Shown one piece after another: positions 26,942 through 30,183 of a stretch of DNA of 50,089 nucleotides. The position numbers and the translations under genes were made by a program. The stretch's first letter is position 1. The number at the start of each line of letters is the position of its first letter. Below the pieces are notes generated by a model. It had not been told where the DNA came from, did no database searches, and worked only from the letters and a program-made list of their open reading frames with translations. Source of the DNA: an uncultured Clostridium sp. (GTDB lineage Bacteria > Bacillota > Clostridia > TANB77 > CAG-508); NCBI GenBank assembly GCA_964620415.1, contig CAZUHD010000002.1, forward strand, positions 1 through 50,089, given 5' to 3'.

Positions 26942-27569
26942 TTATTTTGATACTCTAACTGCAAATTCAAATGCTGCCATTACTGCTTCTACTCCACCTT
27001 TATATGTCCTATGATCTTGATTTATAGATGAGTCTCCGACCGCAAGAATATGTTGTATTTCCTTCTCTATAAAATTCTACGTGTCCATGCCTTACAAGTA
27101 TATCTCCTGGTCGTAAATCGTTTGCATTTGTTATTTTCGTCCAAGTATATTTTTTACAGTTATCATTTGTTAGGTATTTTTCATCTGCAAACCAATTAGA
27201 AACTTGCCTACCAATTTTTATTCCAGATACCCATAACACATAACATACATATGCAGAACAATCAATTATTCCTTCTGATAAATAAGCCCCATTTTCTCCA
27301 ACTGTTGAATCGTTAAGGGGCGAGCTTGGGTTTCCATATGTAAAATTTTTCTCATCTACAAACTTATGTACAATTTCCATATTTCGAACTATATCTCCAT
27401 CTACATAACCATAACTACCATAGCTTGAACTTCCTGACATTAATATGCCCAATTGTTCTAAATCTATTTTTCCTAATTTATCTAGAATAAATATTAGCCC
27501 CATAAAAATTCCTAATATACTTTGTACTACTACACCAATCCCTAATATTTTTTTTACTTTTTTAAACAT
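26942..27569 (-). CDS. NlpC/P60-family cell-wall cysteine peptidase with N-terminal TM anchor; the C-terminus needs a +1 shift at CGG (27036-27038)
   Basis: IIDCSAYVCYVLW (catalytic Cys) and PGDILVRHGHVEFY (His). Track ORF 27009..27569 ends ...YSCGR(CGG)RLIYKSRS*. The +1 frame gives GDSSINQDHRTYKGGVEAVMAAFEFAVRVSK* (stop at 26942-26944). Confidence 0.75.
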
Positions 27570-30183
27570 TATGACTATTTCCTTCTACTCTATTATTTTT
27601 GTCATTATTTTTTCTTATATCTTTTAATATACTGTCAACATCTACTGTTCTAAGAAAGTTGAAAACTGCTCCTTCTGTTGAATCATTTAGATTATTATCT
27701 CCTAAATTTGCATAAGGATTTGGATTTGGCGAATATCTCCTTCTTTCATCTCTCTTATTTCTCTGCTTTTTCTCCTTATTTTTTGATTTGTCAAGTTTTT
27801 CTAATAATTTTTTTATTTTTTCATATAAATCATCTCCGAGAATTTGTCTTGTTCCTTCTGGATCTTTATCAATTGCTTTTTGAATTACTAGTGCTTGTTC
27901 TGCTAATTTTGTATCTATTGCACTATCTGTTAATACTTTTCTTAGTTTATTTTTCTCTTCCTTGGTAATATTTTGTGAACTATTTATTGAGTTTAATTTT
28001 TCATTAATTGCAAATTTTTCATCTTGTTGTAAAACATCTTTCTTTTTCAAAAAAAGCGTTGAAGCAGCGATCTTTAATCTTGTTCCCATATCAATTGCAG
28101 ATCCTGATGATTCTCTTACATTCTTTATTGCCTCTCGTCTTGCTGCTGCTTCTGAAATTCCTTTTTCTTTTTTCTTCTCATCGTCATCCTGTTTTTCAAC
28201 AGTTCTAAGACGTTTTTCAGCAAGTTGGCTCACGTTTTCTTTACCACTTGTAATTGTTGGATTTTCATAATTTTGTGTCATTGTTTTTCTCTTTTCTAGC
28301 AATTTTTTAGCCATCATAATCATGTTTGCAAAAGACTCAGGATCTACATCTGGATTCGATTCTACCATTGTTCTCATCATTCCTCTAAACTCTGGATCGT
28401 TCAATTGATGAATTGTATCATCTGAAGCCATAGCTGCACTTTCTTGTAATCCTGTTTCGGAACTAGATTGGACACCAATACTTTCATTTTTTAATAAGTC
28501 ATTTAATTCCTTTAATTTTGCATACATTCCCATAGTAAGACCTGCACCAAAAGCCCTCGTCCTCAAATCCGAGAAACGTCTATGTTCTAAAAATTCTGGC
28601 AAAGCTCTAGGCATACGTCTATATACACCAAAATTTCCAGCATTTTTAAGGTAATGGTAAATATTTTCTTTAGCAAAAAATCTATTTCCTTGTTCTCCTA
28701 ATAAATCTATTTCTGGTGGTCTAATTTTTCTTCTATTTCCACTTCTAAGTATAGTCTCTGGGTTTGAATCTATCTGTTTTATTACATCATTATAAAAGTT
28801 GCTGTCTAATCTACGTACATTTAATGTTAGTTTTTTAGGATTATTAAGTTTGTTGACATGTGAATAATTTTCACCTAATGCTGACTCTGTAGACACATTA
28901 ATGGCATTTACACTCTCTCCTTGTTCATTTAATTCTGCATCACTTGCTTCCAGTGCATTTAATGTTGTACCTTCTGGTGCATTAAGACTATTATTTATAT
29001 CTCCCCCTCGTATATTTGAGCCTTCTATTGCATTAAGACTATTATTTACATCTTCTCCTCGTATATTTAATGTCGTACCTTCTGGTGCATTAAGACTATT
29101 ATTTATATCTCCTTCTCGTATATTTAATGTCGTACCTTCTGGTGCATTAAGACTATTATTTACATCTTCTCCTCGTATATTTAATGTCGTACCTTTTGAT
29201 TCATCAAGACTATTATTTATATCTCCTCCTCGTATATTTGAGCCTTCTATTGCATTAAGACTATTATTTACATCTTCTCCTCGTATATTTAATGTCGTAC
29301 CTTCTGGTGCATTAAGACTATTATTTATATCTCCTCCTCGTATATTTGAGCCTTCTATTGCATCAAGACTATTATTTACATCTCCTTCTCGTATATTTAA
29401 TGTTGTACCTTTTGGTAAATTACTATTTATATTCTCCCCTCGTATATTTAATGTTGTACCTTCTGGTGCATTAAGACTATTATTTATATCTCCCCCTCGT
29501 ATATTTGAGCCTCCAATTGCATTAAGACTATTATTTACATCTCCTTCTAGTGCATTTGGTTCTGCTGGTGCATTAAGTCTGTTTATATTTTTTCCATGTA
29601 AATTTAGCTTTGCATTGAGTTTATTTACATTTAAACCAAGTGTTGAATCTTGAGGTCTATTACTATTATTTTCTAGTGCTAACGTAAATCTCTTTCCTCC
29701 ATTTATTTCGCCATTATCAAAAGTTCCTAACTCCATTGGACCAGATATTTTTATTTTTTGTCCTTTATTAATAAAGTTTTCCAAGTTTTGTCTCTCTTGA
29801 TTTAAATAATTTGCATTCAATATATTAACATCTGCAGCAGTTCCAATGTTTTTATCTACAGCAATAGAGCCATTTAGACCTATTTCTCCCTCTATTCTAA
29901 TTTTGCTAGCATTAAAGTTTTCTCCCTTATAGTCCTTGTTCTGTTCAGTTGAAACATTTTCTTGTTGTTTAGCAATCTCCTCATTTGGATCAAGTTTTGG
30001 CACCTCACTTGGTTGAGCTTTATTAGCACTTCCACTTCCTAAAAGTGTCGTTTTATCTTGTGTATGTGTTCCTGTTATATTTTGTATCATAACTTTAGTT
30101 ATAGCACTAGCCGCCGACATAGTTACCTTAATAATTCCTATTGCCGTTCCTAAATATAAAAATGCTATTATAAATAAATTCAT
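27562..30183 (-). CDS. 873-aa N-terminally anchored protein with about 14 tandem 17/19-aa repeats and a K/E-rich helical C-terminus
   Basis: N-terminal hydrophobic helix. Repeats alternate as DINNSLNAPEGTTLNIRGE (19 aa) and DVNNSLNAIEGSNIRGG (17 aa). No recognised family. Confidence 0.7.
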   Translation of the reverse strand: MNLFIIAFLYLGTAIGIIKVTMSAASAITKVMIQNITGTHTQDKTTLLGSGSANKAQPSEVPKLDPNEEIAKQQENVSTEQNKDYKGENFNASKIRIEGEIGLNGSIAVDKNIGTAADVNILNANYLNQERQNLENFINKGQKIKISGPMELGTFDNGEINGGKRFTLALENNSNRPQDSTLGLNVNKLNAKLNLHGKNINRLNAPAEPNALEGDVNNSLNAIGGSNIRGGDINNSLNAPEGTTLNIRGENINSNLPKGTTLNIREGDVNNSLDAIEGSNIRGGDINNSLNAPEGTTLNIRGEDVNNSLNAIEGSNIRGGDINNSLDESKGTTLNIRGEDVNNSLNAPEGTTLNIREGDINNSLNAPEGTTLNIRGEDVNNSLNAIEGSNIRGGDINNSLNAPEGTTLNALEASDAELNEQGESVNAINVSTESALGENYSHVNKLNNPKKLTLNVRRLDSNFYNDVIKQIDSNPETILRSGNRRKIRPPEIDLLGEQGNRFFAKENIYHYLKNAGNFGVYRRMPRALPEFLEHRRFSDLRTRAFGAGLTMGMYAKLKELNDLLKNESIGVQSSSETGLQESAAMASDDTIHQLNDPEFRGMMRTMVESNPDVDPESFANMIMMAKKLLEKRKTMTQNYENPTITSGKENVSQLAEKRLRTVEKQDDDEKKKEKGISEAAARREAIKNVRESSGSAIDMGTRLKIAASTLFLKKKDVLQQDEKFAINEKLNSINSSQNITKEEKNKLRKVLTDSAIDTKLAEQALVIQKAIDKDPEGTRQILGDDLYEKIKKLLEKLDKSKNKEKKQRNKRDERRRYSPNPNPYANLGDNNLNDSTEGAVFNFLRTVDVDSILKDIRKNNDKNNRVEGNSHNV
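28948..29565. repeat. Coding tandem repeat array of 51- and 57-nt units
   Basis: Near-identical units are visible in the plus-strand sequence, for example TAAGACTATTATTTACATCTTCTCCTCGTATATTTAATGTCGTACCTTCTGGTGCAT. The + ORF 28901..29653 is a shadow of this array. Confidence 0.85.

Follow-up and report, generated by a model that had tools for sequence, protein, structure and literature searches.

A predicted β-solenoid repeat array in a lineage-specific protein of a clostridial type IV secretion locus

By operon position, the closest described counterparts of the protein considered here are the PrgK/TcpG/CwlT-type hydrolases of type IV secretion systems (T4SSs), whose place after VirB6 and before VirB8-like genes it shares. 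This protein is an 873-amino-acid (aa) repeat protein, called REP in what follows, encoded at 27562-30183 on the minus strand of a 50,089-nucleotide (nt) stretch of DNA (the window), which is the whole of contig CAZUHD010000002.1 of assembly GCA_964620415.1, an AT-rich metagenome-assembled genome of ~2 Mb and ~26% guanine plus cytosine (GC) from an uncultured Clostridium sp. Unlike these hydrolases, REP has no SLT, CHAP, NlpC/P60 or amidase domain, catalysis being found in a separate small gene. It also differs from the wall-anchored T4SS adhesins of the PrgB/PrgC/TraO type, as its sequence has neither the Sec-type positive n-region nor the C-terminal LPXTG motif of those proteins, and no adhesin domain was found in it with Pfam.

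Two other kinds of described protein need to be considered. ZipA, a type Ib membrane protein with its N-terminus out and its C-terminus in (N-out/C-in), as is the case for TatA, consists of an N-terminal transmembrane (TM) helix, a basic stretch, a long low-complexity linker and a C-terminal domain. REP resembles ZipA-type tethers in having a TM helix at the extreme N-terminus without a positive n-region, then a basic stretch, a linker and a C-terminal domain; the two have no sequence relation, however, and the linker of REP holds a predicted rigid solenoid whereas that of ZipA is a flexible P/Q-rich tether. Among solenoids, bactofilin has ~17-19 residues per turn, the left-handed hexapeptide β-helix 18, and FHA/TpsA repeats 19-20. 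One coil per 17-19 residues, as in these proteins and in the passengers of Ag43 and other autotransporters, is what is predicted for REP as well, but REP differs from bactofilin, hexapeptide, FHA/TpsA and pentapeptide-repeat proteins in having no Pfam match to Bactofilin, Hexapep, Fil_haemagg or Pentapeptide.

In the literature we found no description of such a T4SS component. What is new here, as far as the structural model goes, is a β-solenoid repeat module inside a lineage-specific T4SS accessory protein; the solenoid and the T4SS are themselves known kinds. Our reading as a whole, to which we give somewhat better than an even chance, is that REP is a real lineage-specific T4SS accessory protein, a membrane tether or scaffold of N-out/C-in topology in which the solenoid would act as a spacer.

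The repeat array and its predicted fold

An earlier note on this DNA, made from the letters alone, had pointed to an 873-aa open reading frame (ORF) at 27562-30183 with one N-terminal TM helix, a repeat region and a K/E-rich helical end. The ORF list bears out the gene, and both ends appear in AlphaFold2 (AF2) models at low confidence, as a helix at aa 2-33 and as mostly helical structure over aa 460-860. Kyte-Doolittle hydropathy in a 19-residue window reaches 2.1 at aa 1-11. The parts of REP are listed here, with confidence given as the predicted local distance difference test score (pLDDT) of the models described below.

27562-30183 (-), complete REP ORF, 873 aa, from the ORF list and homology to the positional equivalent in genome G129
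30189-30194 (-), Shine-Dalgarno site AGGAGG, 6 nt upstream of the REP ATG, read directly
30085-30183 (-), N-terminal hydrophobic anchor, aa 1-33, from Kyte-Doolittle hydropathy, the AF2 helix and the family motif
29638-30084 (-), N-proximal region, aa 34-182, rich in N, G and K, without relatives and of low confidence (pLDDT 25-44 in the single-sequence model, 42-66 in the aligned model)
29542-29637 (-), two degenerate units before the array, aa 183-214, LNVNKLNAKLNLHGK and NINRLNAPAEPNALEG, strands modelled at pLDDT 52-61
28951-29541 (-), core tandem array of 11 units, aa 215-411, from Tandem Repeats Finder, the unit table and AF2
28810-28914 (-), two degenerate units after the array, aa 424-458, HVNKLNNPKKLTLNVRR being similar to DINNSLNAPEGTTLNIRG, pLDDT 37-50
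27565-28809 (-), C-terminal K/E-rich, mostly helical half, aa 459-873, from AF2 at low pLDDT, BLASTP and hhalign

Tandem Repeats Finder places the array at 28957-29545 with a period of 57 and 10.9 copies (79% matches), or alternatively with a period of 108 and 5.5 copies (84% matches, score 783). At the protein level 11 clear units of 17 or 19 aa occupy 197 aa (aa 215-411), namely four 17-mers of type A (DVNNSLNAIEGSNIRGG), five full 19-mers of type B (DINNSLNAPEGTTLNIRGE), one variant 17-mer C (NINSNLPKGTTLNIREG) and a last unit that is a truncated 19-mer type. The earlier note had described about 14 units of alternating length. The lengths of 17 and 19 residues stand, but alternation is only partial (A B C A B A B B B A B), and a count of about 14 is approached only when the ~4 degenerate units that flank the core, two on each side, are added to the 11 clear ones. 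Its statement that the 57- and 51-nt DNA units are near-identical agrees with what we see: identity among units of one type is 88-100%, with one pair of 57-nt units that do not differ at all, and the longest exact direct repeat in the array measures 108 nt, at an offset of 222 nt. The reading frame is maintained across 591 nt of repeats. The REP gene contains no CGG codon, so that CGG-dependent +1 frameshifting has no bearing on it. The GC content of the array is 32%, equal to that of the remaining gene, and therefore gives no sign of recent transfer. Judged from these sequences, the array is a recent, species-specific expansion that none of the relatives searched carries, and the near-identity of its DNA would make further change in length likely.

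The unit itself has counterparts elsewhere. An exhaustive HMMER (phmmer) search of 1.84 billion representatives with REP gave 419 matches at E<=1e-3, 129 of them at E<=1e-10 and the best at E=3e-31; the best 150 of the 419 all cover aa ~160-440, the repeat region. The matching proteins carry tandem 19-aa units such as GGSVGDGFDAFSGSTVNIS and, where annotated, have PEP-CTERM or dockerin ends and a Planctomycetota origin. The consensus of 1030 such units with exact 19-residue spacing is GSTVNISGGxVGxxFxAxx, with which the REP unit GTTLNIRGEDVNNSLNAPE agrees at 10/12 conserved positions; relative to this consensus, two residues of the ‘STV’ strand are missing from the REP 17-mers. When the columns of every REP unit were permuted identically (15 trials), or the sequence was reversed, all similarity was lost, so that the match depends on the order of the residues and not on their composition or periodicity. 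The Planctomycetota repeat and REP have in common a period of 19 aa, with 18-/17-aa variants, and the same spacing of G, S/T, aliphatic, N and A positions. The Planctomycetota proteins differ in their signal peptides, their PEP-CTERM/dockerin ends and their distant phylum, whereas REP has an N-terminal anchor, no PEP-CTERM/dockerin end, a T4SS context and native AT-rich codons. The likeness might come from shared ancestry or from convergence on the same coil geometry. The 19-aa GSTVNISGG repeat appears to be a large unnamed family in its own right, with hundreds of representatives in Planctomycetota and metagenomes (proteins P0002-P0250); Pfam and NCBIfam hold no repeat model for it, the PDB no sequence relative, and the literature searched no description.

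The predicted fold depends on whether these proteins are used. When the whole of REP was modelled without an alignment, AF2 gave a mean pLDDT of 44 (53-71 in the repeats) with long strands of 13 residues, and Foldseek found nothing with this single-sequence model. With a 56-row alignment of REP aa 140-470 and Planctomycetota proteins, the model (the aligned model) has a predicted TM-score (pTM) of 0.63 and a pLDDT of 74-91 over aa 215-411. In it, all 11 units have the same three short strands, at D-[IV], L-N-A and (T)-L-N-I, in register, which would make each unit one coil of a three-sided parallel β-solenoid with Asn/Gly at the corners. In a Foldseek comparison of the aligned model with the PDB, the best E was 0.68 and TM-scores were <=0.35; the candidates listed were nearly all solenoids (Ag43, tailspikes, PL6 and pectate lyases, a beta-helical antifreeze protein and pentapeptide-repeat proteins). 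The earlier note had suggested a solenoid and proposed structure prediction to check it, and the prediction with the alignment agrees, with one modelled coil per unit. We consider it quite probable that the array folds as a β-solenoid in this way, which is the best-supported fold.

The REP family and its genomic setting

Direct searches made REP look isolated. Word-indexed homologue searches of 5.8 billion proteins, with the whole of REP and with aa 440-873, returned only REP itself; whole REP had no match in 40 relatives; and neither a protein scan nor a DNA-pattern scan of JGI metagenomes gave a relative of REP or of the array. Tblastn of the repeat against plasmid records also gave no match. 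A scan of genome contigs with a single protein recovered the G129 record and nothing else. The family was found by synteny, in the sequence that lies downstream of VirB4 in related genomes. The two closest species have proteins of 681 and 602 aa at the position of REP, with the last of the VirB6-like genes upstream and, downstream, a small anchored peptidase gene and a paralog-like one. Both proteins are built as REP is, with a TM helix at the N-terminus, a middle rich in N/G and a helical end rich in K/E. These two positional equivalents are 22% identical to each other (E=4e-21), and the VirB4 of each species is ~86-87% identical to that of the window. A profile built from the two collected 9 members among 200 genomes of the genus, which were aligned, and the family occurs in a subclade of the genus, in ~10/338 of its species.

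The membership of REP is seen at both of its ends. BLASTP aligns it with the G129 member at aa 527-790 (E=2e-9) and aa 1-57 (E=1e-5), and hhalign matches it to the 9-member family profile with a probability of 88% (E=3e-6). The N-terminal anchor motif of the family, M-[ND]-L-[FL]-[IL]..FL..G..IG with no K/R before it, reads MNLFI..FL..G..IG in REP, and the two C-terminal blocks of the family, NPEFR..MRTM and [DE]P....ILG[DE], are found in REP as NPEFRGMMRTM (aa 596-606) and DPEGTRQILGDD (aa 774-785). Pfam and NCBIfam assign no family to REP or to the other members, the only Pfam hit of REP at E<=0.1 being a sub-threshold BigA_N, and neither REP nor the family profile has a significant match by sequence in the PDB. 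On these alignments, REP is a member of a very fast-evolving, lineage-specific family and not a true orphan. When 337 genomes of the genus were searched with REP, G129 alone was convincing, and the array was absent from every one of them. At 873 aa, REP is the longest member, compared to 602-757 aa for the others, and the 197-aa array makes up most of the excess. The member of genome G209 (L016:130-2403) has an unrelated GQ-rich insert of ~170 aa with ~8-aa repeats (QQIGQTAG-like) close to the position of the REP array; taken together, this insert and the array suggest that the middle of the family tolerates repeat expansions.

The gene is embedded in what is, by the genes detected, a conserved chromosomal T4SS operon of the Gram-positive type (MPF-FATA-like). 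On the minus strand, its order is VirB2/TrbC-like pilins (several, five of them scanned), a PrgI-like protein, a VirB4-type ATPase, four VirB6-like paralogs, REP, the P60 peptidase, two anchored paralogs and an M23 peptidase. VirB4 is 63-87% identical in 40/41 genomes searched, which include the source genome and span genus and order; this marks the locus as a conserved chromosomal system and not as a mobile element of sporadic occurrence. The T4SS context drawn in the earlier note is thus matched by the pilins, the PrgI-like protein, the ATPase and the P60 and M23 peptidases that we detected, and its placement of REP after the VirB6-like genes and before the P60 hydrolase by the two immediate neighbours. 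These neighbours, and the peptidase genes directly downstream of family members in the related loci, are as follows.

30197-31954 (-), VirB6-like membrane protein, last of four, upstream of REP, from the ORF list
27009-27569 (-), small NlpC/P60 peptidase gene with an N-in anchor, downstream of REP (Pfam NLPC_P60, E=3e-4)
L012:3569-4309, downstream peptidase
L013:3329-3937, downstream peptidase
L014:3341-4231, downstream peptidase
L015:759-1448, downstream peptidase
L016:2416-3234, downstream peptidase
L017:662-1447, downstream peptidase
L018:3056-3805, downstream peptidase
L019:79-882, downstream peptidase

The Shine-Dalgarno site of REP is graded strong, and 13 nt separate REP from the stop of the preceding VirB6-like gene; VirB6-like genes precede family members in loci L002 and L003 also. 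On the other side, the REP stop and the start of the P60 gene overlap by 8 nt, as read directly. We considered whether REP and P60 might be one gene broken by a frameshift and rejected this, as the two are separate genes in relatives too. In 8/8 related loci, the gene directly downstream of the family member codes for a small peptidoglycan peptidase whose N-terminal anchor is rich in K/R. Its catalytic domain is Peptidase_M15_4 in six loci, CHAP/NlpC-P60 in one (as in the window) and C39-like in one; the peptidase has thus been swapped between three unrelated catalytic families across loci while its position and anchor were kept. That such a peptidase is present each time, and that the two genes of the window overlap by 8 nt, suggests that REP and the peptidase are partners, functionally or physically.

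In more distant members of the genus, a single multi-domain PrgK-like wall hydrolase of 840-1377 aa stands in place of REP and the peptidase, at these positions.

L004:4200-7775, large PrgK-like hydrolase at the REP position
L005:4165-8298, large PrgK-like hydrolase at the REP position
L006:10545-14222, large PrgK-like hydrolase at the REP position
L007:3593-6115, large PrgK-like hydrolase at the REP position

These hydrolases differ from REP in the charge pattern of the N-terminus, which is opposite, and in the lack of profile similarity; a derivation of REP as their split-off N-terminal part was rejected, as hhalign against the large hydrolase of one relative in the genus gave a probability of 0.3%.

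Three further observations concern VirB4 and a neighbour of its gene. The genome of the window contains a second, distant VirB4-like gene at G000:C5:8175-9950, 28% identical to the VirB4 of the window, and a gene of this kind is present in most relatives. The VirB4 orthologue of one relative (G012:C6:30195-32130) is divided between two neighbouring open frames, of 411 and 252 aa. Upstream of the window VirB4, and overlapping its start, a 414-aa ORF at 39318-40562 has weak, sub-threshold similarity to the TrsD/TraD family (NCBIfam E=0.0046).

Membrane topology and competing explanations

The orientation of REP in the membrane decides much of what it could do. Its N-terminus, MNLFIIAFLYLGTAIGIIK, has no K/R ahead of the hydrophobic helix and two lysines, K19 and K30, after it. 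The same holds for 10/10 family N-termini, in which no K/R precedes the TM helix, the 15 residues after it carry a net charge of +1 to +3, and D is often found at position 2. The exported proteins of the locus (P60, the two paralogs and the VirB6-like proteins) have a K/R-rich n-region, the opposite pattern. Read with the positive-inside rule, the charge pattern of REP predicts an N-out/C-in protein with solenoid and helical domain on the cytoplasmic side, and we believe that the solenoid and the C-terminal domain are rather likely to reside in the cytoplasm and not in the wall. The dimensions of the solenoid bear on the idea of a stalk through the wall. The rise of a β-solenoid is ~0.48 nm per coil, so that 11 confident coils, or up to 15 with the degenerate ones, would form a rod of ~5-7 nm, and Gram-positive walls are commonly 20 nm thick or more; the case for a wall-crossing stalk is therefore weak. 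The earlier note had supposed the rod long enough to cross a Gram-positive wall, a supposition supported neither by this estimate nor by the N-terminal charges, which predict a cytoplasmic bulk.

The extracellular alternative nevertheless needs to be weighed in full. According to it, REP would have an N-in signal anchor and an extracellular bulk, forming a stalk into or through the wall beside the VirB6 ectodomains and P60, perhaps with an adhesin surface. Such a scenario would fit the presence of the same repeat motif in secreted Planctomycetota surface proteins with signal peptides and PEP-CTERM/dockerin ends, the translational coupling of the REP gene to that of an extracellular wall peptidase and the occupation of the REP position by an extracellular multi-domain hydrolase in other members of the genus, and the predicted solenoid fold would be as much at home in it. 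It has to contend, however, with the uniform absence of a positive n-region and the positive charge after the TM helix in the ten family members, opposite to the clearly exported proteins of the locus, with the absence of LPXTG, SLH, LysM or any other wall-binding domain from REP, with a rod well below the typical wall in length, and with relatives that manage without the array. We consider it rather unlikely. A different possibility is that the array is a recent and essentially neutral expansion in a fast-evolving, largely disordered linker, without a specific structural role and with a copy number that may partly be an assembly artefact. The low identity between family members from species whose VirB4 has changed so little, the different repeat insert near the same place in the G209 member, the restriction of the array to one species among those searched, DNA units up to 100% identical with the 108-nt exact repeat, and the low confidence of the single-sequence AF2 model would fit this. 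Yet the frame is kept through the whole of the repeats, the order of residues in the unit agrees with the consensus of a widespread structured repeat, the array is modelled at pLDDT up to 91, and the young core lies between older, degenerate units, a sign that a structured element has long been present. On this evidence we regard neutral expansion as unlikely. Fast evolution and lineage restriction are also typical of effectors, and REP might be a secreted or transferred T4SS substrate instead of a structural part; the conserved N-terminal TM anchor, the position inside the machinery operon, with VirB6 on one side and the hydrolase on the other in all family loci examined, and the translational coupling to the peptidase gene make this extremely unlikely.

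Several considerations weigh against our own view of REP as a cytoplasm-facing spacer protein. Some concern topology: the site of action of the partner peptidase is extracellular, as is the location of the related Planctomycetota repeats, and the large extracellular PrgK-like hydrolase at the REP position elsewhere in the genus could mean that REP replaces an extracellular scaffold. In some relatives, though not in REP, a weak second Gly-rich hydrophobic stretch is seen at aa 105-125 (Kyte-Doolittle 1.2-1.7), and if this were a TM helix, the topology would be reversed. Others concern the fold, which is a prediction: without the alignment, AF2 drew a different arrangement of long strands at pLDDT 53-71; Foldseek gave no significant match (best E 0.68); and the alignment driving the model consists of distant extracellular Planctomycetota proteins, homology to which would itself point to an outside location. 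The 108-nt exact repeat inside the array is of a kind that could produce an assembly error in copy number. Finally, what the sequences show directly is the gene, its repeats, its family membership, the synteny and, among the genomes searched, the uniqueness of the array; the spacer function of REP, its topology and its partnership with the peptidase we infer.

Proposed role of the solenoid and its implications

With these points in mind, REP as an N-out/C-in tether or scaffold could have come about and could operate as follows. From a few ancestral solenoid-type units in the middle of REP, now degenerate at the flanks, recent unequal recombination in this species alone would have produced 11 near-identical units of 17/19 aa. 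Each unit would fold as one three-sided coil, generating a rigid spacer of ~5-7 nm. The TM helix would fix REP in the membrane, probably next to the VirB6/VirB4 platform and to where the coupled peptidase is anchored, the solenoid would set a fixed distance between the membrane and the C-terminal domain, and this conserved helical domain would be the working end. REP would thus serve as a membrane tether or scaffold, probably working with the small wall peptidase, whose gene is translationally coupled to its own.

A bolder extension, which we think very unlikely but worth stating, is that the solenoid is a length-tunable molecular ruler of a pilus-building Gram-positive T4SS, with the number of coils changed by unequal recombination of the 51/57-nt units. 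If this were true, coil number would set the distance from the membrane platform to the partner wall peptidase, or from the membrane to a cytoplasmic partner, and strains would differ in array length with functional consequences.

The weight of these findings is modest, as they concern one predicted fold in one metagenome-assembled genome. The REP array nonetheless offers an example of a structured repeat, as predicted, that was amplified within one species. Gram-positive T4SSs are structurally poorly known, and the chromosomal, pilin-rich version of uncultured gut Clostridia even less so; a predicted rigid spacer that is always paired with a wall peptidase may provide a handle on the spacing and assembly of these machines.

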